Below, piece after piece: positions 9,363 to 52,384 of a stretch of 64,000 nt of DNA. The DNA is taken from positions 1 to 64,000 of IMG/VR virus record IMGVR_UViG_3300013121_000022. One strand, written 5' to 3'. Every line of letters starts with the position of its first letter. Within the stretch, counting starts at the first letter, position 1. The position numbers and the translations under genes were made by a program. The notes beneath the pieces are model-generated. The model did no database searches, was not told the origin of the DNA, and saw only the letters and a program-made list of their open reading frames with translations. Source of the DNA: a virus. Its lineage: Duplodnaviria; Caudoviricetes.

Positions 9363-12300
9363 ATGACATTCTACGATCCACTAACAAGCATTTTACGAAG
9401 CAAAATCAAAAAGCACTTACGCGGTACACAATTCGACCATGATCAATCTTCACATGGAGGCGGACAGATTGGACACGTATCAACGCCTGCCGTTTCCTCA
9501 GCGCCTGCCAGTGGCAAGGGGAATAAGCGATCTATTCCATATCCAGTCAAGCCAACAGTCTTGTCGAGTGTAACTCCGCAAGTAACACTAAGTGGTGTCG
9601 CAGCTAGTAACGTTCCGTTTTCTCCAGCTACACAACCATTGCCAGTCTTTACAGGCAAACCGGGATCGAAATCCAACGAAGCATTTGATTCACTGGCGAA
9701 AATTCAAAACGAAATTAATCAAGCAGTGGCGAACGGAACTCCGCCCAACATGACTAACATTCGTCAATTTACTCGTGAATTCAATAAAGCACGAATGAAC
9801 TTGACTACCTATTACACCGACAAGAAGCGACAGGCCAAGTGGTTGGCCGCAAACCCGGGACAGTCGCTTCCCAATCCGTTGTCGGTTGGTTGGGCAAATA
9901 TGCCGACAGAAGTTATTGGGCCACGTGAGCACTACTCAATGCTGTTAGATGATTTGCAGGCCGCAATAGGTCAAGGCAAACAGGTTTGGTTGGTCAGAGA
10001 ATTTGGAAATCAAGTTCCGCCAGTTATCCCCGGAATGGCAAATGCAGTAGGCACACCAGTCAACACAACTCCATTTGAACCCTGGAAATATGATGTTCCT
10101 CAGTTCATCAACACTTCACGCGCCACATCAATGAACGCGTACAATGCACTCGGAACAATGCAACACGAAATCAATAAAGCGGCGGCGAGTGGACAAGCTA
10201 TTGACGCGGCAATTTATAAGGACATGCGAACCGAAGCGGCAACCAATCTCAAAAACATGAAATGGATTGCTCAAAAGTTGACAACTCAAGAGGCGAACGG
10301 AACATCAAAAGTTAATCCAAACTGGAATGCCAAGATCGCCACAGACAGTTACAATCACTATAACAAAATTCTCAACATTCTCGATCAAGCGGCATTGTAT
10401 GATTCGTCTTCCGATTCATTTGGTGGGCCTCCACAACTTGTATGGGCAGTCTATGAATTTGGAGAGGGAATCGATCTGCCAAACATTCCGGGTCTTGATA
10501 TTGGGCAAACCCAACGTCCGCCAACTGGACTTTCGGTAACGTTTGCGGCTAATACGCCAACTCCCCCGCAATCTGCTCCAGCTACAGCATCGCCTCAGTC
10601 AACCATCGATCTTCGTAAGTGGGGAGGAATTAAGCCTCAGAAAGAAGTATTCTTGACTCCGGGCGTTGCCAATCCGCTAAACGGAAAATTCACTCCCGAT
10701 CCACGTGCCTATACAGAAGCGCAAGCAGCTCCCGATCTTGATCATTCGGCGGCATTTGATATGCACTATGAAGGGCCAACTGGTGAAATTGTCACGATGT
10801 ATCATGGCGTTTCCAGTGGGTTAACTTCTGCGTTAAAAAATGGAGTTCGCGCAGGCGATCCAGCTGGAAACAATGTGTCGGGATATGGTATCTATACAAC
10901 TAATTCAGTGAGTACAGCGCGGGGATATACCGGAACTGGATCGGATGGCGGAATGCTTGCGCTTGAAGTACACACAGGGCGCACTATTCATATCAACGAT
11001 TTGCGTCGAAATATTCTTCCAGCATGGAGAACACAAAATCCAAATCGAGCATCCAAAATGCACTCCAGCGAACAAGAGCGACAGGCCGCAATGGACGCGG
11101 GTTACTCTACGATTGCATGGAGCTATTCTGGAGGAAGTGAAACAACTTTAATTGTCCTTGATCCAGCACGAGCGCGAATACTTGGGGTTTATGATTCATC
11201 TTCTAATCCACAAACAGTCAAAGACTACACCGATCAAATACTCAATCAACCCGCTAGTTTTGTATCACCTAAATTACCGAAAAGTACATTAGCAACACCA
11301 CAAACTATTGGGTATCGTAAGAGTCCGTCTACAGCGCAAACATATGCACGAAACACTAATGTTGATGCCCCGCCCGGGATACCGCTAAGTGACAAAGCAT
11401 ATCAAGAACTACAAGAATTAGCTAAAGCGCGACAAAACAACCCAAGCTTGCAATCGGCATTCAAATCCAATATTGCGGCAGCTCGATCATTGATAAGCAA
11501 TCTTGTACCCATTCGTACCATGCCAGATACAGCTATTCTTGAAAATATGATTCGAGCAGGAGGGTTGTGGGCTAGAGATTCTATGCCAGCGGTTGCCAGT
11601 GCTTTACGCGCCTCTGGAGATAAGAATGCAATCTCTGCCGCCGATACATTAGACAAGGTTTACAACTCGCCATTATTTAATCCATCGGATGCTCAACTTG
11701 GATTGACTAAAGTTGCTCAATTAGCATATGGGCCACCCATGCGTAACGCCAGAATGTCAGGATATGGAAACATTACATTGGTCGGAAAAAAGGGCTTGCT
11801 TCAAAAGCCGGGCGTTAAAGGCAATACAACATCAGTGTCAGCTTATGGAGGCGGACAAGCAGGAGCAACTATCGATAAACAAGCTTTCGATGATCACGTA
11901 CACGACACCAATTCATTCAAAGAGGTTATGGCGCAACGACTTGCTATGGGCATGATTCAACCTTTCGTAAGTAGTAATGGAAAAATTGACGAACTCCATA
12001 CACCAAAAAGCGGAAAAATTCTATCGCCCGACGATTATATTAGTCAAGCACCAATGTTTACATCCGAAACTCCAGAAGTATACGTCCCGGGTGGAGTGGC
12101 TATGTCGGAATTTAGTCACCTGTTAATTGAAAAGGGTACGCAACACATGATTGATACTCCGGCCAAACCAGCAGTTCCAGAAAAAACAGCACCAACATTA
12201 ACACGTGATAATCAAGGAACTATCGAAACGATGGTTGCCGATAAATATGTTTCCTTTGAATCGCAAGCAACTATTACAGATCGTCAAGGTAACACCCGCG

Positions 12301-12674
12301 CCGGAAAATTGTGGGATGCAAATAACAATCGGCCAATGACTGATGCGGAAATTGAAAAGAATGCAACTGCCGAGTGGTGGAGTGGGCCAACTCGTAACCA
12401 GATGAAACAAATTAAAACTCCGATGAAAAAGATCAACGGTGTATGGGAATTTGTAACTCAACAAGCCGAATCCGCAAAACCTGCATCTAAAACGCCAACT
12501 GATGCCGTTGCGTATTTCACCAAATTGTTTAGTGACCTTAATATTGATATTCAAATTATTGAAACCGATCCTAATGCACCCAATATGCACTCAGCTTATG
12601 CATCACGATATGGCGGATATGGAAATACACCGTATGAAGATATTATGTACGCACGAGCAGGATTAAATAACTAA
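9363..12674 (+). CDS. tagged multidomain cargo protein with two ADP-ribosyltransferase-like domains
   Basis: Start refined to ATG 9363; tag KHLRGTQFDHDQSSHG at 9411; MYHG...GYGIYTT...ARGY...AGY...LIVLDP (PARP/ART-PolyVal-like); MIRAGGLWAR...YGNITLV...PEVYVPGGV (DarT/DUF3626-like, weaker). Confidence 0.6.
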   Translation: MTFYDPLTSILRSKIKKHLRGTQFDHDQSSHGGGQIGHVSTPAVSSAPASGKGNKRSIPYPVKPTVLSSVTPQVTLSGVAASNVPFSPATQPLPVFTGKPGSKSNEAFDSLAKIQNEINQAVANGTPPNMTNIRQFTREFNKARMNLTTYYTDKKRQAKWLAANPGQSLPNPLSVGWANMPTEVIGPREHYSMLLDDLQAAIGQGKQVWLVREFGNQVPPVIPGMANAVGTPVNTTPFEPWKYDVPQFINTSRATSMNAYNALGTMQHEINKAAASGQAIDAAIYKDMRTEAATNLKNMKWIAQKLTTQEANGTSKVNPNWNAKIATDSYNHYNKILNILDQAALYDSSSDSFGGPPQLVWAVYEFGEGIDLPNIPGLDIGQTQRPPTGLSVTFAANTPTPPQSAPATASPQSTIDLRKWGGIKPQKEVFLTPGVANPLNGKFTPDPRAYTEAQAAPDLDHSAAFDMHYEGPTGEIVTMYHGVSSGLTSALKNGVRAGDPAGNNVSGYGIYTTNSVSTARGYTGTGSDGGMLALEVHTGRTIHINDLRRNILPAWRTQNPNRASKMHSSEQERQAAMDAGYSTIAWSYSGGSETTLIVLDPARARILGVYDSSSNPQTVKDYTDQILNQPASFVSPKLPKSTLATPQTIGYRKSPSTAQTYARNTNVDAPPGIPLSDKAYQELQELAKARQNNPSLQSAFKSNIAAARSLISNLVPIRTMPDTAILENMIRAGGLWARDSMPAVASALRASGDKNAISAADTLDKVYNSPLFNPSDAQLGLTKVAQLAYGPPMRNARMSGYGNITLVGKKGLLQKPGVKGNTTSVSAYGGGQAGATIDKQAFDDHVHDTNSFKEVMAQRLAMGMIQPFVSSNGKIDELHTPKSGKILSPDDYISQAPMFTSETPEVYVPGGVAMSEFSHLLIEKGTQHMIDTPAKPAVPEKTAPTLTRDNQGTIETMVADKYVSFESQATITDRQGNTRAGKLWDANNNRPMTDAEIEKNATAEWWSGPTRNQMKQIKTPMKKINGVWEFVTQQAESAKPASKTPTDAVAYFTKLFSDLNIDIQIIETDPNAPNMHSAYASRYGGYGNTPYEDIMYARAGLNN

Positions 12675-14701
12675 TGTACAAACTCGCCACAATCACAGAT
12701 GGTAATAAAACCATACAGGTTCAAATTAATATTTGTAGCACTTGTCGATTTTTTATCGATCCGCCAATGATGCCGCCAAACACTGAACGTCGATGCGCCA
12801 GACCCGCGATTACTCAGGATGGATATATGCATTACATTGCGTATGGCGGATGTCCAGAGTGGCAAGCAGGTGTTCCAATTGGTCATGATTTACCCGAAAA
12901 ACCTATATGGTTAACCATGCTTGAACGAGCGGGACTATCCGATGGTCTTGGTGTACACGGTGTATCAGTCACAATTGACTCGAATCCGTCCAATGGCGAT
13001 CAAGATCACGACTCGCAATATGATTTGCCGAGCGAATATGCACAAGCAAATAAACCAAAAGGTAATCTATTCAAGGCCGTGAAAGATAAACTATTAAAAC
13101 ACGATCATAAAAACGGAGCTCCCCAATCTGTTCACGATCCAACAAAGGGAGTATCAAAATTTAAGATTGGTGAAGATGTAATTCACGCTGTGTATGGCAA
13201 GGCCAATATCGTAAACATTTTTCAGAATGGCCGAGCAATGATTCGCTATACTGCCAGCGATGGAAGCGATGATTACAAAGCGGTAGACGCCAGCGAGCTC
13301 AAGTCTCAATACCAAACACAATACACTAACACGCCTGCTATTCCAAAATTTCCGCCAAAACAAAACAATCTGTTTGGTCATTCGTGGGCGGCGCTAAATC
13401 CCGATCCAAATATGAACAAGCCAAGTAAACGGGACATTCCGGGAAAGAAACCTGACTCGATCACTCAAATCGGAAAGTCAAAAAATGTTTACAAGGTATC
13501 ATTGGAAGGAAAAGACTATATTTACAAGCCCCGCTATGAGGAAGATGACGTTAAGGGAGATCATTACGCCGATTCTAACTTGTGGCAACGCGAAATTGCG
13601 GCTTACGAAATAGATCGAGCACTTGGTTTAGGAATCGTTCCCAAAACAATCAAAGAATCTATTGCCGGAAAAGGGCCGGGTTCGCTTGCCGAAGTTGTCT
13701 CTGGCTTTACACCCGCTCAAACAGGTGACAACACGCTTATCGATAATGGAGAAAGTTTTGCGGTCTTGGATGCACTTACATTACAAAGCGGACGCGAATG
13801 GGGATGGGGTAAAGTTGGCACTCATGGATACGCTACCGGAAATGGTCAGTCGTTTCTGAGAGCTTCACAAGATGAAAAAGGGAGAGGTTCGCCCTTTCAA
13901 AAGAAATACGCCGGACAACCAATTCCCGACGCAATTTTGACTAAGCTCCGATCACTTACCAACGAGCAATTCAACGGATTCATTCCGGCCAGCGTCGATC
14001 CAAACATCAAAGAACAAGCAAACCTGAATTTCACCTACATGCGAGATACCGGACTGATTCCGCCTCCATTATCTGGCAAGTGGTGGTTAGACCCGGGAAA
14101 GAAATTGGATGCATATATCTCAACATTTAAGCAACCATTTGCCGATGCAATGCAAAAACTTAAATCGGTATTACCCAACGCCCAAGTAGACGGAAGACTT
14201 AAAACAGTCGACTCGCTTGTAAGAGATTCAAAACATCTGAAAGTCGATCCACTTAAATTAGGTGATGTTGCTGGTACGCGGGTTATTGTCGAAGACTTTG
14301 ATGCACAAAAAGATGCGGCCAAAAAAATCCGCTCAGCGTTCAATATTACGGTGGATCGATCTCTTGGATTAAAGGGTGCAGGATCACCAACAGAGATCGA
14401 TTACAAGGACAGCGCCGGATACAAAGCTATTCACATGATCGCCAGAGATGGAGATGGAACAAAACCAGTCGAAATTCAAATCAGAACCAAGCGACAAAAT
14501 GTATTGGGCGAATACATGCACGATGTCTTTATGTATCCTGAATTCGAGACGGATAAAGCATTTAATGATTATGTTCAATCAATGGGAGATCATTATTATC
14601 GACTTGATCAAGGATTACAATCGACTTCGCCTAAAGCCCCGCCAATTGCCAAGAAATACCCGAAAGGCGAATTGCCGGACGATCCACTTAATACAAAATG
14701 A
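12674..14701 (+). CDS. tagged cargo: Cys-rich N-term, degenerate HipA/PI3K-like kinase, RelA/SpoT small alarmone synthetase
   Basis: Variant tag KHDHKNGAPQSVHDP at 13097; YKP...REIAAYEIDRALGLGIVPKT; GRLKT..S...DVAGTRVI...GYKAIH...EIQIRT. Confidence 0.8.
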   Translation: MYKLATITDGNKTIQVQINICSTCRFFIDPPMMPPNTERRCARPAITQDGYMHYIAYGGCPEWQAGVPIGHDLPEKPIWLTMLERAGLSDGLGVHGVSVTIDSNPSNGDQDHDSQYDLPSEYAQANKPKGNLFKAVKDKLLKHDHKNGAPQSVHDPTKGVSKFKIGEDVIHAVYGKANIVNIFQNGRAMIRYTASDGSDDYKAVDASELKSQYQTQYTNTPAIPKFPPKQNNLFGHSWAALNPDPNMNKPSKRDIPGKKPDSITQIGKSKNVYKVSLEGKDYIYKPRYEEDDVKGDHYADSNLWQREIAAYEIDRALGLGIVPKTIKESIAGKGPGSLAEVVSGFTPAQTGDNTLIDNGESFAVLDALTLQSGREWGWGKVGTHGYATGNGQSFLRASQDEKGRGSPFQKKYAGQPIPDAILTKLRSLTNEQFNGFIPASVDPNIKEQANLNFTYMRDTGLIPPPLSGKWWLDPGKKLDAYISTFKQPFADAMQKLKSVLPNAQVDGRLKTVDSLVRDSKHLKVDPLKLGDVAGTRVIVEDFDAQKDAAKKIRSAFNITVDRSLGLKGAGSPTEIDYKDSAGYKAIHMIARDGDGTKPVEIQIRTKRQNVLGEYMHDVFMYPEFETDKAFNDYVQSMGDHYYRLDQGLQSTSPKAPPIAKKYPKGELPDDPLNTK

Positions 14702-15381
14702 TGCGATCTAAAGTATTGCTTGCTCTAAATAAACACAATCCCGGAGAACATGATCAACTTACTCACGGCAACCGATCTGCGCCTATGGGACGAAACATAG
14801 AATTCGGACGCGGAGTTGACGAAGAAAAAATATGGCTCAACCCCGAACCATACACAACTAGCGGCGAAGAATCGGATGCGGGATCATGGGGAACAAATCT
14901 TGGGTTTGAACCGCCCACATACTCAAGTAAACAATTGGAGTCTCTGGCGATTTATCAGGGCGCATACTATAGAGGAATAAATGCATCACTTCGCAACAAT
15001 ACGCCAACAACTTACAAGCCATTTATCGATGCGATAGACTCAATGATGCTTGCAACTTCTGAACCAATAACGGTGTACAGAGGATTGTTGCTACAGGATA
15101 AGGCACAGCGCGAAAATTTCAAAAAAGGAAAAAGATTTACGGATAGAGGATATTCGTCAACCAGCATTAACAAAAGAGTCGCTCAAAAGTTTGCTCCGCC
15201 CGAAAATCCACGTAGCTTGACTATGAAAATTCATGTTCCCAAAAAAGCAAAAGCACTGCCAGCGTTCCTTATCAAGAACGTCATGAATGAAGACGAAATT
15301 ATCTTGTCCCGAAACACCACTTACGAAGTCATCAGCGATATTGATGCTGACGGACAATTTGAGGTCAAGGTAGTATCATGA
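14698..15381 (+). CDS. tagged cargo: VIP2/C3-type (R-S-E) ADP-ribosyltransferase
   Basis: Tag KHNPGEHDQLTHG at 14731; YRGINASLR, VYRG, YSSTS, EDEIIL (ExE). Confidence 0.88.
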   Translation: MMRSKVLLALNKHNPGEHDQLTHGNRSAPMGRNIEFGRGVDEEKIWLNPEPYTTSGEESDAGSWGTNLGFEPPTYSSKQLESLAIYQGAYYRGINASLRNNTPTTYKPFIDAIDSMMLATSEPITVYRGLLLQDKAQRENFKKGKRFTDRGYSSTSINKRVAQKFAPPENPRSLTMKIHVPKKAKALPAFLIKNVMNEDEIILSRNTTYEVISDIDADGQFEVKVVS

Positions 15382-16226
15382 TTAACGATAGATTTGTAGT
15401 AAAGGCCGACGATCTGGAATTTGAAACAACCAAACATTTAGGGCCACACAATCACCCGAATGGTACACCCCAATCTGTACATGGCAATCATGGGGATTTG
15501 AAAATAATTGATTCTACAGAGGCCAAAAAACAGGTTGAGAATTTTATGAAAACCGTTCCGGCGGAAACCATGAAAGAAATCAATGCCGTTCGAGATCGAG
15601 TGCGCTTTGGAATGACAACTACTGCAACCCACAGAAATCCAGTCACACGCGAGTGGTATCCAGACCGATCTGCATTACATGAAAAAATAATCGAATCGTT
15701 TTTTGAGGGCAAACAACCAGTCGAAAATCCAGAAATGATTTTTTTGGGAGGTTTACCCGGAAGCGGAAAAACAAGCGCAATGCGCGGACGGATGGATAAT
15801 TACGTAGTTTTAGATGCTGATGAAGTTAAAAAACAATTGCCCGAATATGAGGGTTGGAACGCTCCATTGCTACACGGCGAATCGGCCATTCTCGCTCAAA
15901 TGGTTTTTGATAAAGCTATTCAAGGCGGATATAATATAGTCAATGATGGCACACTGCGAAACAAAGACCTTGCCCTAGATTTATTGACACAGGCAAAACA
16001 AGCAGGCTATTCGACAAAAATTGTATTCGTAGGTGCAACAATCAAAACCGCCCTATCCAGAATGCTTAAGCGATTCAAGGAAACATCGCGCTTTATCGAT
16101 CCGGCATTTTATGTTGCAGTCGCTGGTAATCCAGCGAAAACATTTCACACAATCAAGGACATGGCCGACGCATATGAAGTATGGGACAATAATGGCGACA
16201 AGCCTACACTCATGGAGTCGACATGA
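15378..16226 (+). CDS. tagged cargo: zeta toxin-family P-loop kinase
   Basis: Variant tag KHLGPHNHPNGTPQSVHG at 15432; GGLPGSGKTS, LDADEVKKQLPEY, HGES, NIVNDGT. Confidence 0.88.
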   Translation: MINDRFVVKADDLEFETTKHLGPHNHPNGTPQSVHGNHGDLKIIDSTEAKKQVENFMKTVPAETMKEINAVRDRVRFGMTTTATHRNPVTREWYPDRSALHEKIIESFFEGKQPVENPEMIFLGGLPGSGKTSAMRGRMDNYVVLDADEVKKQLPEYEGWNAPLLHGESAILAQMVFDKAIQGGYNIVNDGTLRNKDLALDLLTQAKQAGYSTKIVFVGATIKTALSRMLKRFKETSRFIDPAFYVAVAGNPAKTFHTIKDMADAYEVWDNNGDKPTLMEST

Positions 16227-16950: not shown

Positions 16951-18028
16951 TGATCTGCGCCGATCAATTGAATACGTCTTGCAAAAGCACTTACCCGGTA
17001 AACACGATCAAAGCACTCACGGCAGAAGATCGAATGCTTCTGCCGAATCGGATGGGGTTGGCGGAGGCGGATCGCCGCTGGACTTTGAAGATCATGTCAT
17101 TCGCATTGAAACTGGAAGACATATTGAAAAAGTTACTCTTAAAAACGGCGAAACACGCGACAAGGAAATAATTGATTTTGATTATCAGCACAGTGCGGGA
17201 TCGAAATTAGATTCCAAGACCCTGCAACGGATCAAATCAGTCAAAGTTCCGCCCGGTGTGACCAACGTTCAAATTAGTCTCGATCCAAACGCCATGCTTC
17301 AAGCGGTATGGCAAGACAGCAAAGGTCGTGATGTGTATTTGTACTCGAAAGAACACGCTCGACAAGCGGCGGCTGAGAAATTTGAACGACTCAAAGACTT
17401 CAACGATGCTTTGCCGCAAATTCGCAAAACAATCGAATCAACTCTTTACGACAAAAACGCCGATCCCGAAACAAGAGATGTGGCCGCAGTGTTGTACTTA
17501 ATTGATAAGACTGGATTTAGAGTCGGATCGGATACAGATACGAAAGCGGAAAAGCAGGCATATGGCGCGTCAACACTATTAGGAAAACACGTCAAGGTTG
17601 ATGGGGACTCGGTTATATTTGACTTTGTGGGTAAAAAAGGCGTTGACATTCACAAACGCATTACCGATCCGATTATTGCCGACATTATTTCAACACGCAA
17701 AACAAAGAACTGGAGTCAAAAACTATTTCAGGTGTCCGATGATCAAGTTAGGACATTTCTAAAGCAGTTTGGTGATTTCAAGGTAAAAGATTTCAGAACA
17801 TGGAACGGAACAAACAAAGCACTTGAAGAACTCGCCAAAGTCAAGCGTAAGCCAAAGTCAGAATCTGAATTCAAAAAAGTCCAGCGAAAGATTGCGGACG
17901 CAGTAGCCAAGCACTTGGGAAACACTGCGTCAGTTTGTTTATCGGCCTATATCGATCCGTCGATTTGGGGAAGAATTCGCAAAGAAGAATGGGGCGCATA
18001 TGTCCCGCCAAGTCTCAAGGGCGACTAA
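16925..18028 (+). CDS. tagged cargo: type IB DNA topoisomerase
   Basis: Tag KHLPGKHDQSTHG at 16985; QAVWQDSKGR..YLY, GFRVG, FVGKKG, KDFRTW, LGNTASVCLSAYIDP (catalytic R,K,R,N,Y); start uncertain. Confidence 0.92.
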   Translation: MNLRTNKGSDLRRSIEYVLQKHLPGKHDQSTHGRRSNASAESDGVGGGGSPLDFEDHVIRIETGRHIEKVTLKNGETRDKEIIDFDYQHSAGSKLDSKTLQRIKSVKVPPGVTNVQISLDPNAMLQAVWQDSKGRDVYLYSKEHARQAAAEKFERLKDFNDALPQIRKTIESTLYDKNADPETRDVAAVLYLIDKTGFRVGSDTDTKAEKQAYGASTLLGKHVKVDGDSVIFDFVGKKGVDIHKRITDPIIADIISTRKTKNWSQKLFQVSDDQVRTFLKQFGDFKVKDFRTWNGTNKALEELAKVKRKPKSESEFKKVQRKIADAVAKHLGNTASVCLSAYIDPSIWGRIRKEEWGAYVPPSLKGD

Positions 18029-18230: not shown

Positions 18231-19303
18231 AAATCAGAGATCGGATTCAAACTTTAATCAAACATCTTCCGGGAACACACAATCAACTCGATCATGGCCG
18301 ACGAAAAAACCAACCCGCTGTCCCCGAAACGTCAAATGTTGATTCGGATAATCAGTCGACTCAAGCCCCCACTCGCGCAAGGACAAACAGAAATCCAACA
18401 CTGGCTCAGGGTGTAACAGAAGAACAAGTCGAACAAAAAATAAAAGAGTGGTACATGAATTTTATGATGGAGGGAAATGAGGCGATTGGCGCACCCCAAG
18501 ACTGGTATGATCGCATGAATGAAATTAATGACGCAGAAAATTCAGATGATCCTGACTACGATCAAATCGAATCGGATCGAGATGAATTATATTCCGAAGC
18601 ATACGATCACTTGATGAAGGCGGCGGCTGACAAGATGTTTGAATTAGTAAATGACCCCGATACTGATTTAAGAATTCGCATCTCTCCAAACAAGCTTCAA
18701 CAATTAGTTGAAGATGGAAAATACAAGACCCTGCACGATGTTGTTGCAGAGCTTGATCCCGACGAAGAAATACCTAGCGATATAAATGGCGGCTGGAAAG
18801 ACAACGGACTTCGGCGCACTGCCGAAGATGGTATGTTGGGAGAAGATTCTGAACCAGTTTATGGATACATTTATCATCCCGAACTTGGTAATTACATGGT
18901 TGATTCAAGTCATACTATTAAAGATAGTCTTGATTCGTATGGTACATTAGATTTGATTCTTAAAGAAGATGTTCGTCAACGATCTACCTTTACAGTTGGC
19001 GATTCTTTGGCAATCAATGCTGATGACAACCTAGAATTTGATCCTAGACTTATTCCGTCTCGACTAGATAATCCGAGCGGACTATCTTTTCCGTTCAAAA
19101 TAGACGACAAACATCAAACCCTTGATCCCGATGTTTTATTTCAAGCAAACAGCGTTGCAGAGTTACAGACATACGTTGAAGCACAGATATTAGGTGGAGT
19201 GAAGCTATCCGATATAAAATCAGTCCTTGTGCGCGATGACAATATATCTAATGAACTAACTCAGCAGCTAATCGATGCTGGTATTGAAGTGGAGTATGAA
19301 TGA
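18227..19303 (+). CDS. tagged cargo: DUF3626-like putative ADP-ribosyltransferase
   Basis: Tag KHLPGTHNQLDHG at 18260; L..LV.DG.YK...R..AE...PVYG...YG...LK..V..R.TFT.GDS...YVEAQI.GGV.L.DI. Confidence 0.7.
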   Translation: MKIRDRIQTLIKHLPGTHNQLDHGRRKNQPAVPETSNVDSDNQSTQAPTRARTNRNPTLAQGVTEEQVEQKIKEWYMNFMMEGNEAIGAPQDWYDRMNEINDAENSDDPDYDQIESDRDELYSEAYDHLMKAAADKMFELVNDPDTDLRIRISPNKLQQLVEDGKYKTLHDVVAELDPDEEIPSDINGGWKDNGLRRTAEDGMLGEDSEPVYGYIYHPELGNYMVDSSHTIKDSLDSYGTLDLILKEDVRQRSTFTVGDSLAINADDNLEFDPRLIPSRLDNPSGLSFPFKIDDKHQTLDPDVLFQANSVAELQTYVEAQILGGVKLSDIKSVLVRDDNISNELTQQLIDAGIEVEYE

Positions 19304-20409
19304 AAAAATTAATAGCAACAGCAGGCGACAGAAAATTATATGCACTCGGCAGACGTATGGGAGTTGTTGAAAGCAACGGCAAGACATCTCCGCCTCAGTT
19401 TATTCCATCCATACTACGATCTGATGACTGGACTATGATTCCTGATAAAGTTGAAAAGGCCGGAAACTCCGAATCGGTACGACGCGGCTGGTTGAAGCGT
19501 AAGGCGCTTGAATCGGCCAATCATCTCAGGAGTTTTCAGACTGGATTAGCCGGAATTCCAGATCGGTTCACTCGTGCCGCTTTGCGCCAAAAGCAACAGC
19601 AACACGCTAAAGTAATTTCAGATGTATCAAGAGAGCTATCCAACATGCAACACAAAAAACTACGAGACATTGTAACGGGCAACGTTCAAAAACATTTGCA
19701 AGGCCGACACGATCAAAAGGATCATGGCCGCAAGCAATTTAGCTTTGCCAGTGAAGTGCAATCAGTAATAAATTCTTTGCCAGTTCTGGATACAACTTTT
19801 CGAGACAGCAGAACCAGCGATGCTTATGTACAATGGAAAAAAGATATAGTCAATGCATCCATGAATGGTCGGTTGCCTGAATTAGCGGAAGCATGGTCAC
19901 AGGGTTGGTCAAACACAATTCGCGAAAAGTTGACTCCATCTACAGTTAAGACATTGGACGCACTTACCAATGATCAAAACAGTCGATCTAACACCATCGT
20001 TCCCGAATCTCAACTCTCAGATATTTTGAGCGAGATTACTACCGATGGCTATTATGAAGGAATGAACTCTGTTCGACTAGATCGTCCTGAACTTATTAGC
20101 GAGTTTTTGACTCCGGCAAATCAAGCAATGAGGGCTATTGATTCGTTTTTGACTTCACTTGGACACCCCGCTGGTGTATTGAACGGACTACAACTAGATG
20201 ATTTTAGAGGAATAGACAAAATACATCGTGGTGTATATGACTCTGCGGGATATGATCGAAACAAAGTCGAGTCGGCGGTTGTGTTTGACGACATTAATTT
20301 TTCGGATTTATCAGCCTCTATTGGCAATTATTTAATGATGTACTACCGAGACAATCCAGAAGACATTCCGGCCAATTTCCGAAACTCGATTGTGATTGCA
20401 GGCGATTAA
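19300..20409 (+). CDS. tagged cargo protein, unknown function (two tags)
   Basis: KAGNSESVRRGW at 19456 and KHLQGRHDQKDHG at 19690. Confidence 0.75.
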   Translation: MKKLIATAGDRKLYALGRRMGVVESNGKTSPPQFIPSILRSDDWTMIPDKVEKAGNSESVRRGWLKRKALESANHLRSFQTGLAGIPDRFTRAALRQKQQQHAKVISDVSRELSNMQHKKLRDIVTGNVQKHLQGRHDQKDHGRKQFSFASEVQSVINSLPVLDTTFRDSRTSDAYVQWKKDIVNASMNGRLPELAEAWSQGWSNTIREKLTPSTVKTLDALTNDQNSRSNTIVPESQLSDILSEITTDGYYEGMNSVRLDRPELISEFLTPANQAMRAIDSFLTSLGHPAGVLNGLQLDDFRGIDKIHRGVYDSAGYDRNKVESAVVFDDINFSDLSASIGNYLMMYYRDNPEDIPANFRNSIVIAGD

Positions 20410-21550: not shown

Positions 21551-22289
21551 CGACATAATTAATGATCGGGTTGTCAAAATAGTTGATGGACGCGAAATCG
21601 AAACCGATTCACCGTCCATCGAAGATGTTTATCGGTCTTTGCGATCTCACGGAAAACTTCGCAACAAAGTTGCCGCAGTCATAAAACATTTGTCAGGCAA
21701 ACACGATCAATCAAGTCACGGAAATCGAAACGGCAGTAACATTGTCACAAAAAAAATTGGCAATGCAACCATATCTTTGAATCAGGGCGATCTCACTAAA
21801 GTTCCGGTAGACGCCATTGTAAATGCCGCCAACGATCATTTACAACACGGTGGTGGACTTGCTCGTGCCATTGTAGTACGTGGCGGAGATTCGATTCAAG
21901 ACGAAAGCGATCAATGGATTCAAGAAAACGGCAACCCATCTTCAACTCGTCCGGCAATCACATCAGCGGGATCGTTGCCAGCAAAAATGATCATCCATGC
22001 TGTTGCGCCTAGATGGAACGAAAAACAAGAACCACAGATGTACGAACAACTCAAGTCGGCTTACAGATCGGCGCTAGATGTCGCACATCAAAAAAACCTA
22101 AAATCAATTTCGTTTCCATCATTGGGAACTGGAATATTTGGAGTTCCAATTTCAGTCGGAGCAAAAGCCTCAAGAGAGGCAGTAGAAGATTTTGTTCGTG
22201 ACAATCCAGATTCTTCGTTGAAAGATATTCGCTTTACAATCTTTGACGACAAAACTGTGTCGGTTTTTGAAAGTGAGTATTCTAAATAA
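21543..22289 (+). CDS. tagged cargo: macrodomain (MacroD/YmdB-like ADP-ribosylhydrolase)
   Basis: Tag KHLSGKHDQSSHG at 21684; GDLT...DAIVNAAN..L.HGGG.A.AI...IIHAV.P...SISFPSLGTGIFG. Confidence 0.92.
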   Translation: MNNDIINDRVVKIVDGREIETDSPSIEDVYRSLRSHGKLRNKVAAVIKHLSGKHDQSSHGNRNGSNIVTKKIGNATISLNQGDLTKVPVDAIVNAANDHLQHGGGLARAIVVRGGDSIQDESDQWIQENGNPSSTRPAITSAGSLPAKMIIHAVAPRWNEKQEPQMYEQLKSAYRSALDVAHQKNLKSISFPSLGTGIFGVPISVGAKASREAVEDFVRDNPDSSLKDIRFTIFDDKTVSVFESEYSK

Positions 22290-26147: not shown

Positions 26148-26776
26148 TTAACATTGTTAGCAATCAATCGATCATAGCCACTTACGACAACGATATGGGC
26201 TGGTCGGGAAATCCGAATCAGGTTCAGGTTCTAATAGAAACATTTGGTAAGCAAACCGAAGATCAATATCTTCGGACGATATGTGGATCGTACTTGTTTG
26301 CCCAAAAATCAAAACAAACACTAATGCAGACGATCAAGCACCTAATCGGTCAGCACGACCAAAAAACACACGGTGGACTCAAAGGGACTTTGCTTAGTAT
26401 TCGTGAAAACATTGTCCAGAAGGCTCAGGAAGTCTTGGACGACTGGAAACCGAACGAAGATGGCTTTGACGAGTTATTCGGCTCAGGCGGGGCGTGTGAC
26501 GAGATTGCAAGGGTAATGAGTGACGTTATCACGGAACAAATACCAGACGCCGAGATATTTGATGGTGGTCAGGACGGTGATGATCACGCCTTTATCTATG
26601 TCAAACAAAACAATAAGGCTTTTGCGGTTGATATTCCGCCGGGCGTCTATGAAACAGGTGGGGGATACAATTGGAAAAAGAAAGAGGGAGTCAAGCTCGA
26701 ACCGGACGATGTAGTTATATATGAAATTGACGCCTCTGTACTTGAATCGGAATTTGACGATCACGATTACGATTGA
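26144..26776 (+). CDS. tagged cargo: possible papain/transglutaminase-fold enzyme
   Basis: Tag KHLIGQHDQKTHG at 26336; GGAC.EIA...DHAF...VDI suggests a Cys-His-Asp triad. Confidence 0.55.
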   Translation: MINIVSNQSIIATYDNDMGWSGNPNQVQVLIETFGKQTEDQYLRTICGSYLFAQKSKQTLMQTIKHLIGQHDQKTHGGLKGTLLSIRENIVQKAQEVLDDWKPNEDGFDELFGSGGACDEIARVMSDVITEQIPDAEIFDGGQDGDDHAFIYVKQNNKAFAVDIPPGVYETGGGYNWKKKEGVKLEPDDVVIYEIDASVLESEFDDHDYD

Positions 26777-42188: not shown

Positions 42189-42930
42189 ATGCATCTTAGA
42201 AAAAGCGTTCAGCGCATCGTCAAACACTATGGCCCGGGCGACCATAAATCTGGCTCGCCTCAATTGGTTCATAACCCGCATCATTCGAGTGAATCGGACG
42301 ACATTGTTTCTACAGGCGAATCGGTTGGGTATCCAGATATACACGTATCATTCAAAAAGTCCAATCCAAGCGAATTCAAAAAAGCCATACAGTCAACTGA
42401 AAATCGCAGCTCATTTTTAGGTGGATACTCGGAAGACGACTATAAAAAGATGTCGGTGTATCTATCAACTGATGGAAAGACGGGATTTGCAATCAAGCCT
42501 GATGGCGATCTTGTCTCAGTGTTCAACAATGGCGGAGTGAAGGGAGCTGGAAAAGTTGCAATCAAAACTGCTTTGAAGCAGGGCGCAAAAAAACTCGACT
42601 GCTTTGATGGATTTCTACCTAATTTCTATGCCAGCTTTGGTTTCAAAGAAAGTGAGCGCATGAAATGGGACGACCAGTACGCTCCAAAAGATTGGGACTA
42701 TAAGAACTATAACAGACGTTGTTTTTATGGTTGTTGGAGATGAACAAGTGAACAAACAATTGAACAATAAACTAAAACTAAAAATTGAATCAAGATACGG
42801 AAAAGGGTATCTCGATAAATACAGAAAAATGTTCCTAGATCAATTGAATTACATCGAATCTCTTGGTGTTCCAGATAAAATGACTGAACAAGAACTAAAA
42901 GAACTAAGAGAATTCCTTGAAAGCGAATAA
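42189..42930 (+). CDS. tagged GNAT-like cargo gene, apparently frameshifted near 42715 (ORFs 42189-42743 and 42727-42930)
   Basis: Variant tag KHYGPGDHKSGSPQLVH at 42222; GFAI..DGDLVSVF...G.G...A...G..KLDCFD..L..FY..FGF; expected DVVFM continues in another frame. Confidence 0.65.
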
Positions 42931-46546: not shown

Positions 46547-46547
46547 T

Positions 46548-47035: not shown

Positions 47036-48010
47036 ATGACATCAAAACAAGAATTGATTAAAAACATAACCGCACAAATTGCAAGCCTGCTCGACAAAGG
47101 ACTTGAGACATCAAATCTTAGTCAAGGTGGCATGTTGAATTCGGCACAACTTGTTTTGCCAAAGTCGGTTGATGAATTGCCCGACTCAGCAAAAGAAGAA
47201 TTTATTTCAGTGTACAAATCAACAGACGGTGGGGAAGAAACAAAACTCTCCACTGCATGGAAGGCAGTCAAGCGCAAGTGGAAAAAAGTTGAACCCGAAG
47301 ATTCGGAAGACGAAGAATCTGCCGATCACGAACAGGGTGAAACTCCCGACGAAGAAAAAACCGAAGACGAGAATGGCAAGAAAAAGAAAAAGCCGTTCTG
47401 GATGAAAAAAGATGTCTTAGGGCCAATCGTTGGCGATGTTGATCAGTTGCGTCGTCAGTTGATTACAGATGGCTACCCCGAAGCGGCAGAAGAAGTTCAG
47501 ATGGTTGCTGACTCTGGATGGACAATGCCTCTCGCTTTAGACTCAATCCCTCATGGATACAGGGAAACAATTTCGGAGCGATATTTTCATGCTCGCAAGG
47601 ACTTGACTGAAAACGCCGACGAAGCGTTTGAAGTTCAAGTTGCTTTCAAGGCATTGCTTGATGAGCGCAAGATTACTTATGGGGTTGTGTATCCAGCCAA
47701 TGAGGTTGATTTGCAGAAAGAATGGGCGACGGAAAATGTAATTGAAAACGCCGCGCATAATTTCATGGCAAATTACCGACAGCACGACACCTTCCACAAC
47801 GAACGTGCTGGAGCAGGCGTACCCGTTGAATCGTTTATCGCGCCATGCGATATAACCGAATTTCACGGCAAGCGTCTAACTCCCGATCAAGTTATCAAGA
47901 AAGGTTCGTGGATCATGGCAACGAAGTGGAACGATGATACTTGGAACTTGGTCAAGAGCGGAAAGATTAAAGGTTACAGTATCGGCGGATTCAAACGAGT
48001 TCGGAGATAA
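47036..48010 (+). CDS. prohead protease (XkdF/S78-like) with N-terminal capsid-arm-like peptide and ChaB-like domain
   Basis: ITYGVVYP...D...E......IENAAHNFM...H...VESFI...GSWIM...W..VKSG.IKGYSIGG; LP..A...F..VY......TAW.AVK.KWKK (ChaB). Confidence 0.88.
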   Translation: MTSKQELIKNITAQIASLLDKGLETSNLSQGGMLNSAQLVLPKSVDELPDSAKEEFISVYKSTDGGEETKLSTAWKAVKRKWKKVEPEDSEDEESADHEQGETPDEEKTEDENGKKKKKPFWMKKDVLGPIVGDVDQLRRQLITDGYPEAAEEVQMVADSGWTMPLALDSIPHGYRETISERYFHARKDLTENADEAFEVQVAFKALLDERKITYGVVYPANEVDLQKEWATENVIENAAHNFMANYRQHDTFHNERAGAGVPVESFIAPCDITEFHGKRLTPDQVIKKGSWIMATKWNDDTWNLVKSGKIKGYSIGGFKRVRR

Positions 48011-48012
48011 AT

Positions 48013-48921
48013 ATGACGAACAAATTAACTAAAGACGATCCAGAAGCGAAAGAGCTTACACACTTAGATGTTCAATTTGTAAGTGCAGTTGGTAATCCAG
48101 CTACTGGAAAGGACTTCTTACTTTACAAGTCGAAAGACAAAGAGGCACACAACATGAGTGATAAACTTACAGCCGATCAAGGCGTCTTTAAGGAATTTGG
48201 ACGCAAGCTTGCTCAGGCATTTGGCGTTGAAACCGTTGACGAAAGTTTGGCGGAAGCAACTCAGCATCTTGCTGAAATTGCAGCTAAGGCCAGCGGACGC
48301 GCACCAGCTGATGATGCAGGCAATGGTCGTAATCCAAACTATCCCAACCCACCCTATGCGAAATCTCAGGGTATTCCAAATTCAAATGGCGCAACCGCGT
48401 CAGTTGGTAGTTCCGCTCCGGGAACAACTATGAAGCAACAGGCTGAAATTGTACAGGGCAACCCAGCTTTCAATTCCAGCATGAGCGATGTAGTTTCGGG
48501 ACAACCAGTTACAAAAGACGCAATTCAGGAATTTTTGAATCGTGTCGAGAAATCAGCAATCAACCCAAGCGCACTGGAAACAGCTCGTGAAGCTTTGGAA
48601 GCGGCATTCAATCCTGCGCCGGAGGAAACACACATGACATCCGAAGAAGTTAAAGAACTTGTCCTCAAAGCACTCGATCCAATCATCGAGCAAGTTGAGG
48701 AACATGATGAAACAATTACAACCCTTAAGAGCTCGACTGATTGGGAAGCGAAATACAACGAGCTGTTGTATCGCGTCGATGCACTTGAAGCTACCTTCAA
48801 GAATGCAGATGGCACACGCAAAGTTGCAAAAAGTCGTGTTCCGCCTGTCACCGAACCCGTAGCGAAGTCCAGCGGTGTTTGGGCAGGTTCGCCGTTTGAC
48901 ATCTCGGAAGATTTGCTGTAA
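48013..48921 (+). CDS. capsid scaffolding protein carrying a protease-like N-terminal strand
   Basis: Between protease and capsid; ELTHLDVQFVSAVGNPA..K.FLLYKS; coiled coil; many K-S/K-A sites. Confidence 0.7.
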   Translation: MTNKLTKDDPEAKELTHLDVQFVSAVGNPATGKDFLLYKSKDKEAHNMSDKLTADQGVFKEFGRKLAQAFGVETVDESLAEATQHLAEIAAKASGRAPADDAGNGRNPNYPNPPYAKSQGIPNSNGATASVGSSAPGTTMKQQAEIVQGNPAFNSSMSDVVSGQPVTKDAIQEFLNRVEKSAINPSALETAREALEAAFNPAPEETHMTSEEVKELVLKALDPIIEQVEEHDETITTLKSSTDWEAKYNELLYRVDALEATFKNADGTRKVAKSRVPPVTEPVAKSSGVWAGSPFDISEDLL

Positions 48922-48954: not shown

Positions 48955-49932
48955 ATGGCTATGACACCAGAAGAAATTCAGAAACTTGCAGAAGAAATGA
49001 CCCTTCGCAAGTCTTTGCAAACAAGCAACTTGGTTAATGGTGGTTTATTGAATCCGGCGCAAGCTGATGCATTTATCACCTATATGTTCGAGTTGACTGT
49101 GTTGACCAAGCTCCGCTTGATCCGCATGACAACTCCAAAGCAGGACATCGACAAGATCGGTGTTGGTACACGTTTGCTCCGCAAGGCAAGCGAAATGACC
49201 ACTGTTTCCGACTCCACAACGTTTACGTTGGGTAAGGTTCAGTTGGTTACTCAGAAATTGGTATTGCCCTGGGATATTTCCCGCGATACCTACAAATCAA
49301 ACATCGAACGCTCAGGCGTTGCTGATACGGTTCAGCGATTGATGGCTATTCAGGCCGGAAACGATGTTGAAGATTTAGCTATCAACGGTGATACCGCGTC
49401 CGGCGATTCATTGCTATCGGCTAACGATGGTTGGTTGAAGTTGGCAAAGGCATCCGCCGATACCGTTCAGATCATGGCATCTGGTTCTGGTATTTCAAAG
49501 GCGTTGTTCAGTCGAATGATCAAGGGCTTGCCCAACAAGTTCAAGACTCGTCGTTCAGAATTGCGCTTCTATGCCGCACCGAACATCGTTCAGGATTACG
49601 TCGATCAATTGTCAGATCGCGAGACACAATTGGGCGATAGCTTGATCCAAGAAGGCGCTCGTGCAATGGTCTTTGGTATTCCGTTGATCGAAGTTCCATT
49701 GATCCCAACCGATACCGCTGGTACATACGTTGGAGCAACCGGAAACCACTCCGATGTTATCTTGACCTTCCCTGAAAACTTCGTAACTGGAGTTTTGGAA
49801 GACATCGTAGTGTTCCACTGGTTCAATGCTCGTAAAGACGCGCATGAATTTACCATGTACGTTGAAACAGATTACCAGTGGGAAAACTTGCAGGCAGTTG
49901 TTCTACTGCGAGATACCAAAGTATTAAGCTAA
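48955..49932 (+). CDS. major capsid protein (HK97 fold, XkdG-like)
   Basis: GGLLNPAQAD.F, IDKIGVG.R.LR, NIE, D.E.LAINGD, DGWLK, Y..QL..RET.LGD; strong RBS; followed by terminator. Confidence 0.93.
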   Translation: MAMTPEEIQKLAEEMTLRKSLQTSNLVNGGLLNPAQADAFITYMFELTVLTKLRLIRMTTPKQDIDKIGVGTRLLRKASEMTTVSDSTTFTLGKVQLVTQKLVLPWDISRDTYKSNIERSGVADTVQRLMAIQAGNDVEDLAINGDTASGDSLLSANDGWLKLAKASADTVQIMASGSGISKALFSRMIKGLPNKFKTRRSELRFYAAPNIVQDYVDQLSDRETQLGDSLIQEGARAMVFGIPLIEVPLIPTDTAGTYVGATGNHSDVILTFPENFVTGVLEDIVVFHWFNARKDAHEFTMYVETDYQWENLQAVVLLRDTKVLS

Positions 49933-50032: not shown

Positions 50033-51121
50033 ATGCCCATTCGCCAGCGTATTAGATCGATCCTTGTCAAACATTTAGCTGGACAACACGATCAATTAAC
50101 TCATGACCCAACTCCCGATTGGGATGCTCAGGATTCCAAGTTTGAATACGAAGTGGTTTCACACACCAGTGCAGTCAATAAAGACTTGCTAGATTGGCGC
50201 GATCAAATTGGTAAAGTAATGAGCAAATTTAATCAGCGGTATGACTTTGAAAGATTTTTTGGATTCCGTCCAAATCGAGACGACCTTGATCAACTGGATG
50301 AATCGGCCACTATTCAGTACAACGCAGTGACTTTTCTATTAAATCGATCCGGTGGATCGTTGCAAGACGACTTTCAAACAGAAAAAACCATTGTTGAGTC
50401 TCGGCTACAGCAAGCACAAGATGCGTTAGACAACGCAACTTTCAAGACTGATGAATATCGCAAGATTTGGAAAAAAGCAGATCAAGAATATGAAGATTAT
50501 GATGGGGACGATGAATACACCATTAATGTACTCAGTCGTCGAGTGAGCGATGCCAAGTATAATTTTGAAGAATATGAAGACTACCAAAAAAGCTACGAGA
50601 ACGATCTTGAGGAAGTGCAGAATGAACTCGACAACCTTGAAACATCTTGGGAGGATGGTACATATGCAAAGGATCATGACAGCGCCTACAATGAAGCTGT
50701 GGCATCAACTTATCGAGATTCGAGTGGTATACTACAAGCGTTTGCAGTATTTTCTGGAAAACCCGAACCCAATGGCGAGTGGTATATGGAATTTATGTCT
50801 GTAGCTCCCTGGAACAATCCTAATGCCAGTCGCATTCGAGACGAGGAAACAGGTAAGCGAGTAAACATTGATCGTCAAATCGAAAATCTTTTTGGTCACA
50901 AAAAAGACGCAACTGCTTCATTGAAATTGGCTTTGAAAATATGCAAAGATGCGGTAAAATCAAATTCAACTCTCAGGTTTCAGCCAGCCACAGATCAAGT
51001 TCAAAAGCTGTATGAATTCGTGGGCGCAAAAGTTGTCGGGCGTGAGGAAAACATGCCAGTGATGACATGGGACGTTAATTCTATGAAGAAATTCATAGAG
51101 AACTACAAAGGGAATTCCTAA
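50033..51121 (+). CDS. tagged cargo: acidic coiled coil plus GNAT-like domain
   Basis: Tag KHLAGQHDQLTHD at 50069; RDSSGILQAF...YMEFMSVAPWN...LYE..G resembles the last domain of 29013-33290. Confidence 0.7.
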   Translation: MPIRQRIRSILVKHLAGQHDQLTHDPTPDWDAQDSKFEYEVVSHTSAVNKDLLDWRDQIGKVMSKFNQRYDFERFFGFRPNRDDLDQLDESATIQYNAVTFLLNRSGGSLQDDFQTEKTIVESRLQQAQDALDNATFKTDEYRKIWKKADQEYEDYDGDDEYTINVLSRRVSDAKYNFEEYEDYQKSYENDLEEVQNELDNLETSWEDGTYAKDHDSAYNEAVASTYRDSSGILQAFAVFSGKPEPNGEWYMEFMSVAPWNNPNASRIRDEETGKRVNIDRQIENLFGHKKDATASLKLALKICKDAVKSNSTLRFQPATDQVQKLYEFVGAKVVGREENMPVMTWDVNSMKKFIENYKGNS

Positions 51122-51747
51122 TGAAAAAACCAGATGATTTAGAATGGGACTTTACAGTTGTCAAGCCCAAGAAAAAAACAAATCTTAAAAAAGCAGTCGC
51201 TCAAGCACTTGAAGTCAACAAGCATTTGCCGGGACAGCACGATCAATCAAGTCATGCTGGTAATCGAGCTAAAGCAAAAATGTTTGATCGGACGCAGTTT
51301 TCAAACCATGATGAAAATTCTTTTAAGCAAGTAGCCAAAAAAAACCAAGAGAAGTTTGCCAAACTTTCATCAGTAGAAAAAGGCAGTCTCATTAGACAGT
51401 GGGCGAATAACAACCCGCATCAATTGTTCAAAACGTTAGCTGCTTTTTTGGATAACAACAATCAGTCCACTCTATCGGGAATCGTGGATAAAATGGCGAG
51501 TCATTATCCCGACATACATGATACAGTTGGAAACACCGCAAACGGCATGTTTCATATCGCCGGACGTGACGCCTTAGAACTGGATACATACCACAGAACA
51601 CTCGATCCTGACGTTGAGCGAGAGGGTATTGTACAACTCATAAGCCGAACAGGAAGCAACCCAAGCGATGTGTTTAGATCGGCATTTGGTCAAGCACAAC
51701 TCACCGTTCAGGATCGAAATTGGCTTGATAAAAAGTTGTCATGGTAA
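51121..51747 (+). CDS. tagged cargo protein, unknown function
   Basis: Tag KHLPGQHDQSSHAG at 51220. Confidence 0.75.
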   Translation: MKKPDDLEWDFTVVKPKKKTNLKKAVAQALEVNKHLPGQHDQSSHAGNRAKAKMFDRTQFSNHDENSFKQVAKKNQEKFAKLSSVEKGSLIRQWANNNPHQLFKTLAAFLDNNNQSTLSGIVDKMASHYPDIHDTVGNTANGMFHIAGRDALELDTYHRTLDPDVEREGIVQLISRTGSNPSDVFRSAFGQAQLTVQDRNWLDKKLSW

Positions 51748-51853: not shown

Positions 51854-51856
51854 ATT

Positions 51857-52384
51857 ATGGGAAAACATACACCCGAATTTGAAAGGTGTGTAGAATCGGT
51901 CATGGAGTCTGGCAAAGACAAGTCCAGCGCATTCGCTATTTGTACCGCTTCTTTCAAAAAGGCAGGGAAACCAATTTTGAAATCACCACTCAAAAAGCAA
52001 GTTGAAGAAGTTTTGCAGAAACACCCAGGACACCCCGATCAAAAAGTACATGGTCATAAAGGTCGCGGTACATCTCAGAACGAATCGGCAAGTGCAACCA
52101 AACCATCGTCTAATAGCCCCAAGATCATTGAGTGGGAAAAATCGAAAGCAACAATCTCCAAACGAAATGATGGTGGTCACGACGTTGAATACAAGGGCCT
52201 GAAGGTTGAAATCAAACCTCATTCATTGGGCGGATTCATGGCGCACTTTAGACCCCCGCCAATTGGCGGCAAAAAATCGAATGAAATAACTTCAATGAGA
52301 CTCAACGGGCAAGACAATTTATTGCAATGGGCAAAAAGCACTCTTATTGAGTTCAGTCGAAACAATTTGTACGATAAAGACTAA
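51857..52384 (+). CDS. tagged protein with N-terminal RCV...AFAIC module
   Basis: FERCVESV...SAFAICTAS; variant tag KHPGHPDQKVHG at 52019. Confidence 0.75.
   Translation: MGKHTPEFERCVESVMESGKDKSSAFAICTASFKKAGKPILKSPLKKQVEEVLQKHPGHPDQKVHGHKGRGTSQNESASATKPSSNSPKIIEWEKSKATISKRNDGGHDVEYKGLKVEIKPHSLGGFMAHFRPPPIGGKKSNEITSMRLNGQDNLLQWAKSTLIEFSRNNLYDKD

Follow-up and report, generated by a model that had tools for sequence, protein, structure and literature searches.

Why do 19 open reading frames (ORFs) of a single uncultured phage, set around its head genes and many of them encoding unrelated enzymes, carry the same short His-rich peptide? The question is raised by a 64-kb stretch of DNA (hereafter, the window), which is the first 64 kb of the 172,504-bp virus record IMGVR_UViG_3300013121_000022; the record has direct terminal repeats and is rated 100% complete. 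The T4, P1 and phiKZ-like phages are known to pack enzymes into the capsid and deliver them by injection; outside these models, such cargo is not predictable from sequence, and a searchable tag would supply the predictor. An initial annotation of the window had interpreted the peptide, which we call the tag, as a signal for loading enzymes into the head. Our analysis partly supports that interpretation: on balance, we judge that the tag is a portable signal that directs the processing of head-carried proteins and probably serves in their loading as well. It would mark the modules that bear it as substrates of the prohead protease and, by analogy with T4 and the giant phages, most likely as capsid cargo too.

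A six-frame regular-expression scan of the window returned the same 24 in-frame copies that had been listed initially, in 19 plus-strand ORFs between approximately 9.4 and 52 kb, and none besides; all 24 Lys codons translate to the motif. As had also been claimed, neither the minus strand nor the first 8 kb contains a copy. No in-ORF copy was found in the six frames of the remaining 108 kb of the 172,504-bp genome. The consensus of the tag is hydrophobic-x-K-H-(x2-4)-H-D-Q-x-x-H-G, and 18 of the 24 copies have the canonical form K-H-x-x-G-x-H-[D/N]-Q-x-x-H. The variants comprise one copy with a 3-residue insertion (Lys codon at 9411), three of the form G-x-P-Q-x-V-H and two of the form K-H-P-G-H-P-D-Q-x-V-H; all four forms were seen again in other phages. 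The copies and the ORFs that carry them are as follows.

9411..9458, + strand: tag copy 1 (3-residue insertion variant), residue 26 of ORF 9336-12674 (1112 amino acids, no Pfam family)
13097..13135, + strand: tag copy 2 (G-x-P-Q-x-V-H), residue 142 of ORF 12674-14701, followed by RelA_SpoT
14731..14769, + strand: tag copy 3, residue 12 of ORF 14698-15381, followed by ADPrib_exo_Tox
15432..15485, + strand: tag copy 4 (P-Q-x-V-H), residue 19 of ORF 15378-16226, followed by Zeta_toxin
16985..17023, + strand: tag copy 5, residue 36 of ORF 16880-18028, followed by topoisomerase IB; the peptide used in the complex model
18260..18298, + strand: tag copy 6, residue 12 of ORF 18227-19303, with a weak DUF3626 match
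19690..19728, + strand: tag copy 7, residue 131 of ORF 19300-20409
21684..21722, + strand: tag copy 8, residue 48 of ORF 21543-22289, followed by Macro
22382..22420, + strand: tag copy 9, residue 31 of ORF 22292-23989, followed by a PolyA_pol/CCA-type nucleotidyltransferase and HD
24012..24050, + strand: tag copy 10, residue 13 of ORF 23976-25031
25287..25325, + strand: tag copy 11, residue 86 of ORF 25032-26147
26336..26374, + strand: tag copy 12, residue 65 of ORF 26144-26776
27687..27722, + strand: tag copy 13 (K-H-P-G-H-P-D-Q), residue 89 of ORF 27423-28235, with a zinc ribbon N-terminal of the tag
29943..32705, + strand: tag copies 14-18 (Lys codons 29943, 30954, 31797, 32163 and 32667), residues 311, 648, 929, 1051 and 1219 of ORF 29013-33290
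29013..33290, + strand: ORF for a 1425-residue polyprotein with two ART-PolyVal domains and a weak LPD1 match; each module boundary has one tag
33352..34722, + strand: tag copies 19-20 (Lys codons 33352 and 34684), residues 31 and 475 of ORF 33262-35829, with a PTS_2-RNA/KptA-like ADP-ribosyltransferase (ART) fold
42222..42272, + strand: tag copy 21 (P-Q-x-V-H), residue 12 of ORF 42189-42743
50069..50107, + strand: tag copy 22, residue 13 of ORF 50033-51121, directly downstream of the capsid gene
51220..51258, + strand: tag copy 23, residue 34 of ORF 51121-51747
52019..52054, + strand: tag copy 24 (K-H-P-G-H-P-D-Q), residue 55 of ORF 51857-52384

A wide range of domains had initially been placed behind the tag. 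Pfam confirmed RelA_SpoT, ADPrib_exo_Tox, Zeta_toxin, topoisomerase IB, Macro, PolyA_pol (CCA-type), HD, two ART-PolyVal domains and PTS_2-RNA/KptA, whereas the zincin, GNAT and nuclease assignments were not confirmed at E<=0.01 (LPD1 was found weakly). The two ORFs with several copies, ORF 29013-33290 with five tags and the two-module ORF 33262-35829 with two, lie upstream of the terminase and portal genes and have the make-up of polyvalent multi-effector proteins.

The conservation of the tag is a property of the peptide. A strict degenerate DNA pattern had 18 matches in the window, compared with 0.00 expected from 100 dinucleotide-preserving shuffles; together with the whole-genome six-frame scan, this ruled out an origin by chance or low complexity. 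At the invariant columns (Lys, His, Gly and Gln), the codon choice between copies tracks the genome's own usage, and the mean nucleotide identity among copies was 67%. Since synonymous codons are free to vary, selection acts at the level of the peptide. A DNA repeat or recombination site was likewise ruled out, since synonymous positions are as variable within the tag as elsewhere in the genes.

The same architecture was recovered from an unbiased set comprising every H-[D/N]-Q-x-x-H site in the tag loci. K-H preceded this core by four or six residues in 381 of the 402 unique sites, and by no more than 14 residues in 392 when rarer spacings were included; the motif extends as G-x-W-A in most relatives. 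Position P3, two residues ahead of the Lys, was hydrophobic in 85% of 406 unique tags, compared with 31% at other Lys residues of the same proteins. The first tag lies at a median residue of 21, and successive tags are separated by a median of 222 residues. A leader before the tag is never absent, the shortest being 3 residues long, and the leaders in the window have a common amphipathic L-R-x-x-V-x-x-x-L pattern. AlphaFold2 (AF2) modeling of one ADP-ribosyltransferase cargo protein (ORF 14698-15381) gave a predicted local distance difference test score (pLDDT) below 50 for residues 1-59 (leader, tag and linker), whereas the domain exceeded 90, suggesting that the tag sits on an exposed flexible arm.

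Two untagged ORFs (20396-20480 and 28228-28560) and the first boundary of the polyprotein (29283-29324) have a similar leader ending in Lys, followed by other conserved-looking peptides: a Gly-rich peptide, a G-H-P-F-R-G-N-Q-Y type and an N-P-D-Q-P-R-D-x-x-G-x-W type. These peptides may be alternative module headers.

Tagged genes are interspersed with the genes for the large terminase subunit, portal, protease and capsid, in agreement with the initial annotation, and with the gene for a scaffold-like protein. The head genes are as follows.

35829..37313, + strand: large terminase subunit gene (terL), which begins where the last tagged ORF of the 9.3-35.8 kb block ends
37323..39062, + strand: portal protein, PF04860 type
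47036..48010, + strand: prohead protease, XkdF type, with Peptidase_S78_2 at residues 209-319 and a weak ChaB match
47618..48007, + strand: protease segment in which residues 60 and 121 are the XkdF catalytic His and Ser
48013..48921, + strand: scaffold-like protein, whose first approximately 40 residues hold a strand found N-terminally in canonical XkdF proteases
48955..49932, + strand: major capsid protein, phrog_1623

Between 9336 and 35829, the tagged ORFs follow one another in the same direction with almost no gaps, their stops and starts abutting or overlapping, and the series continues straight on into terL and the portal gene. Another tagged ORF, 42189, precedes the protease gene and is set amid minus-strand genes, and three more tagged ORFs come after the protease (47036), scaffold-like (48013) and capsid (48955) genes. 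Tags were found only in ORFs that are co-directional with the head genes. A MuF domain (PF04233) was not detected in the complete genome at E<=0.1, so that neither a MuF-anchored polyvalent protein nor a MuF toxin is present here.

A DNA-pattern search of IMG/VR returned at least 117 stretches with the tag, with up to 13 exact matches per stretch among the matches listed, and looser protein matching gave approximately 450 tags among these listed stretches. When a profile of the tag was run against 1.84 billion protein representatives, 1444 clusters matched at E<=0.001 and 389 at E<=1e-10; the largest numbers of tags per protein were 20 (7059 residues) and 12 (3023 residues). The ten best profile clusters, when looked up, had metagenome sources exclusively. 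The 7059-residue protein (P0002) is encoded on an 84-kb contig, about one quarter of which is this single tagged polyprotein. A search of 185,579 prokaryote genomes (596 Gb) gave 16 single pattern matches, nearly all of them chance-like and in off-frames of high-GC DNA; the sole real-looking match was on a contig of a Saccharibacteria bin (L129). These counts rule out a motif of cellular or prophage proteins, and the motif is not equally common in non-phage or non-head contexts. Among 50,697 cultured phage records, tblastn of the tag peptide found no match, and the 1425-residue polyprotein matched through its ART domain alone. There was also no tag near the head genes of Lactococcus phage 28201, Bacillus phage BMBtp14 or Streptomyces phage BillNye.

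In the relatives, tags are confined to phage head-gene operons, as the initial annotation would predict. The usual gene order is a Mu-type portal, MuF, two to nine tagged genes, an XkdF protease, small scaffold or decoration genes, and the capsid gene; the same context was seen on metagenome contigs found independently through the profile search. The tag also occurs behind MuF domains, behind a portal domain (L140) and flanking the protease domain itself (L014, L023, L057 and L066). Such positions beside protease, MuF and portal domains would be expected of processing sites in head precursors. The initial annotation had described a portable, MuF-independent signal. The tag is indeed portable and stands before many unrelated enzyme domains, and in this genome, which has no PF04233 match, it is MuF-independent; many relatives, however, carry their tags directly behind MuF or portal domains or beside the protease domain, and the tag is therefore better regarded as a mark of module boundaries than as an alternative to MuF. 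Cargo families in the relatives include ADPrib_exo_Tox, zeta toxin, DUF3626, SprT-like, GNAT, ddrB-ParB and Arr, and the 420 tagged modules fall into 72 sequence clusters, the majority without a Pfam family.

Several gene arrangements in the relatives are recorded here in their own right. At L140:1102-4215, a Mu-type portal protein runs on into two tagged modules. A 134-residue family that follows XkdF (in L015, L078, L107 and others) often ends in a tag plus 50-150 more residues and looks Tudor-like by eye. Hva1_TUDOR was matched by one cargo module in our Pfam survey and was also found within the XkdF-bearing gene of L143.

Which head protein is the likely partner of the tag? Fifteen gene families are conserved around the tags of relatives, and XkdF is the only one of them for which this genome has a homologue; its portal and capsid proteins belong to other families than those of the relatives. 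The XkdF domain of the window matched 36 of 117 tag-bearing stretches, compared with 44 of the 50,697 cultured phage records. An XkdF profile matched 39 of 115 tag-bearing stretches; among the 30 stretches that reach at least 3 kb past the last tagged gene, 20 had a match, and XkdF was invariably on the same strand as the tags. The co-occurrence with XkdF-type proteases that the initial annotation had proposed as a check was thus borne out. The Pfam model PF14550 matched two of five whole tag-bearing contigs, and our purpose-built profile recovered XkdF in L010 and L140, for which precomputed Pfam annotation showed none. The link between tag and XkdF is strong yet not absolute.

The protease of this phage appears to be split or permuted (47036-48192), with the canonical N-terminal strand found at the start of the next ORF. 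This ORF (48013) is in a different frame and begins 2 nt past the protease stop. In the proteases of Lactococcus phage 28201 and Bacillus phage BMBtp14 the strand is N-terminal, and in the IMG/VR relatives a similar segment lies C-terminal of the catalytic Ser in the same chain. The split could reflect a programmed frameshift or a two-piece enzyme that depends on assembly. The protease also repeats, at 47096-47152, the N-terminal peptide of the capsid protein (49009-49065), with 11 of 18 residues identical as counted by eye. The peptide common to the two N-termini follows a leader of approximately 20 residues that ends in hydrophobic-x-Lys. The weak ChaB match of the protease lies C-terminal of this repeated capsid N-arm.

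To characterize the contact between tag and protease, we predicted a three-chain complex in which a 33-residue tag peptide (copy 5) was combined with the XkdF core and residues 1-60 of the scaffold-like protein. The interface score (ipSAE) was 0.81, 0.77 and 0.82 in three runs, compared with 0.03 for the best of three controls; in our calibration, 58 of 80 solved complexes but just 2 of 110 mismatched pairs attained this mark. At least 72% of contacts were common to the three runs, and the pLDDT of the partner was 54-56. The confident interface comprises tag residues 7-17, which, for a cut directly after the Lys, would be positions P7 to P4'. In the model, the invariant Lys contacts the catalytic Ser121, the invariant Asp31 and Gln33, while the preceding residue contacts the catalytic His60. 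Scaffold residues 17-20 and the strand that follows the catalytic Ser both pair with tag residues 9-11, and scaffold residues 17-31 line the modeled substrate cleft. As a prediction, the model supports binding of the tag at the XkdF active site, and a Lys placed in that site favors the cleavage half of the proposal more directly than the loading half. We also modeled a natural XkdF-linker-tag fusion (L066, residues 1-300) with AF2. Its protease core was confident and its leader formed a low-confidence helix; the tag had a pLDDT below 50 and no docking in cis was seen, in a region that has no alignment depth and is little informative.

Cleavage is consistent with the occurrence of one tag per module, with the placement of tags beside the domains of protease, MuF and portal, and with the hydrophobic-x-Lys rule; the following mechanism can be proposed. 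A cargo module would begin with a flexible extension made of a short leader ending in hydrophobic-x-Lys and then His-x-x-(Gly-x)-His-Asp-Gln-x-x-His-Gly. Within the procapsid, the XkdF-type protease, its fold seemingly completed by the N-terminus of the scaffold-like protein, would bind hydrophobic-x-Lys-His in its active-site cleft and cut at or beside the invariant Lys. The cut would strip the leaders and divide polyproteins into single enzymes, each keeping the His-rich peptide at its new N-terminus. The same contact may draw the precursors into the head; because the enzyme that would recognize the tag is itself a component of the procapsid, contact with it is possibly the loading step. The freed ADP-ribosyltransferases, alarmone synthetase, zeta kinase, topoisomerase IB, macrodomain and other proteins would then exit with the DNA at infection. 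We infer cleavage and loading, as well as packaging and injection, the latter two from gene position and the kinds of enzyme encoded.

A number of observations weigh against this proposal. No XkdF match was obtained with the profile in L031, L005, L055, L032, L060 or L141, and in L141 the tags are fused behind a different family of prohead protease. Cultured phages have XkdF without tags, which indicates that the protease is independent of them. The setup of the complex departed from that of the calibration in having three chains and our own alignments for the XkdF core and the tag. The H-D-Q-x-x-H-G core, which is the most conserved part and is often followed by x-W-A, lies outside the confident interface. 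Finally, approximately 20 conserved residues far exceed what a protease site requires, leaving a second function unexplained.

An extended form of the proposal, which we hold possible but tentative, would make the protease the cargo receptor: the split XkdF, competent once the scaffold N-terminus completes its fold, would capture the tag, cut at the Lys and release the cargo inside the shell, and the His-rich peptide left on the cargo would serve a further purpose, for example anchoring that depends on a metal or preparing the cargo to leave by the tail.

Unlikely, in our estimation, is a tag that serves as a cleavage site only, with loading left to the variable leaders, to fusions with MuF or the portal, or to passive capture. 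The tagged chains of many relatives start with MuF or portal domains, which are themselves head components, the leaders of the window have their common amphipathic pattern, and the untagged ORFs at 20396 and 28228 have the same leader-Lys followed by other peptides. However, the phage lacks MuF, some leaders are only 3 residues long, and conservation after the Lys exceeds the needs of cutting.

Placed after it, and also improbable, is a pure docking peptide that attaches to the inner surface of the capsid, to the scaffold or to the portal and stays intact; the modeled contact with the protease would then be incidental. Encapsulin cargo-loading peptides behave in this way: they are usually C-terminal, bind the HK97-fold shell protein directly and remain uncut. 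Like the tag, they are short conserved peptides on diverse enzymes, and they direct these enzymes into an HK97-fold shell. The length of the conserved peptide, with its three His, one Asp and often a Trp, is more suggestive of binding or of a metal-bridged handle; its His-rich core is not within the confident protease interface, and every module has its own copy. On the other side, the portal and capsid families differ among tag-bearing phages whereas the protease family is common to them. A single tag per polypeptide would suffice for docking, yet every internal boundary is tagged, and the invariant Lys and hydrophobic P3 lie at the modeled catalytic site.

A tag that acts after injection or outside the capsid, as a metal-binding (His3-Asp) switch, a host-factor site or a handle for tail passage, its place in head operons reflecting late co-expression, is very unlikely: the H-x(2-4)-H-D-x3-H spacing could hold a metal ion, a cut after the Lys would leave His as the mature N-terminus, and the domains are effectors that work in the host cell, but the neighboring portal, MuF and protease genes and the protease-domain fusions point to assembly, the model puts the tag in the protease cleft, and metal binding drew no support from any test.

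The surroundings of the tagged genes have further features. A minus-strand block (39394-46829) splits the head module between portal and protease and encodes a helix-turn-helix protein, a UvrD-type helicase, RtcB and an ATP-dependent ligase-like protein. The initial annotation had named a macrodomain and a PARP as untagged minus-strand genes; the PARP (61062-62315) is indeed untagged, while a minus-strand macrodomain was not found with Pfam. This PARP has both catalytic and regulatory (PARP_reg) domains, a eukaryote-like architecture in a phage, and a ThiF/E1-like protein is encoded nearby, also on the minus strand (63325-63906). The tagged block opens with a ParB-methyltransferase gene (8036-9361), just upstream of which is a terminator-like hairpin on the plus strand (7992-8020; an 11-bp stem followed by a T run). 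A promoter and terminator scan of 7-27 kb found sites no more often than in shuffles, and this hairpin was the single strong one on the plus strand; it may mark the start of a late unit.

Leaders cut by a prohead protease from injected proteins, and polyvalent effectors, are known principles. The T4 capsid targeting sequence (CTS), found on the internal proteins IPI-III and Alt, is removed by the prohead protease gp21, an S77 enzyme that cleaves after L/I-x-Glu; the leader has approximately 10 residues and can be transferred to foreign proteins (PMC9026906). The tagged system resembles it in that unrelated, putatively head-internal proteins, an ADP-ribosyltransferase among them, have short N-terminal leaders (3-60 residues before the tag) that would end at a site for the prohead protease. 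It differs in having hydrophobic-x-Lys rather than L/I-x-Glu and an XkdF (S78_2) rather than an S77 protease, and so does not conform to the T4 type; moreover, the CTS has no conserved peptide after the cut and is not placed between the domains of polyproteins. In phiKZ-like giant phages such as SPN3US, ejection and inner-body proteins are cut after S/A/G-x-Glu by a gp21-like protease (PMC7411985, PMC5694885). Many head-internal proteins, a short consensus cut site and subsequent entry into the host are common to both, as far as our proposal holds for the tagged proteins, although the phiKZ-like protease is of another family and its substrates have no common 20-residue tag.

Phage-type polyvalent proteins are multidomain effectors of head modules that are predicted to be injected, with processing by zincin-like metallopeptidases proposed (Iyer et al. 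2017, PMC5512222). They share ART-PolyVal, LPD1, ddrB-ParB, MuF and a C-terminal prohead peptidase with the tagged system; here, by contrast, most modules are separate genes, each with a tag. The MuF polymorphic toxins of temperate phages have variable toxin domains behind a head-morphogenesis domain (Jamet et al. 2017, PMC5576092). The position between portal and protease is the same, and relatives have MuF-tag-domain fusions; however, MuF toxins are defined by MuF and by their prophages, whereas MuF is missing from this phage and cellular genomes are essentially free of the tag. A text search of PMC5512222 found no HDQ motif, linker or conserved inter-domain motif, one of PMC5576092 found no linker or cleavage motif, and the XkdF papers searched gave no cleavage specificity. 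The initial annotation knew of no functional description of the motif; our literature search likewise found none, and HDQ was not found together with phage and capsid. In the literature searched, there was no description of the peptide, the Lys-type site, the link to XkdF or the use of the tag as a universal header of modules.

The tag flags approximately 70 clusters of modules, mostly without a Pfam family, as candidate effectors of host takeover or anti-defence in the first minutes of infection. If it marks head cargo as proposed, injected effectors would become recognizable from sequence alone in hundreds of uncultured phages. The tag also offers hydrophobic-x-Lys as a candidate specificity for the uncharacterised XkdF protease family, and a candidate address that could be transferred to foreign proteins to load them into phage heads. 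If the protease is indeed the cargo receptor, this address would be a universal and engineerable load-and-cut signal, and a sequence key to hundreds of injected effectors.

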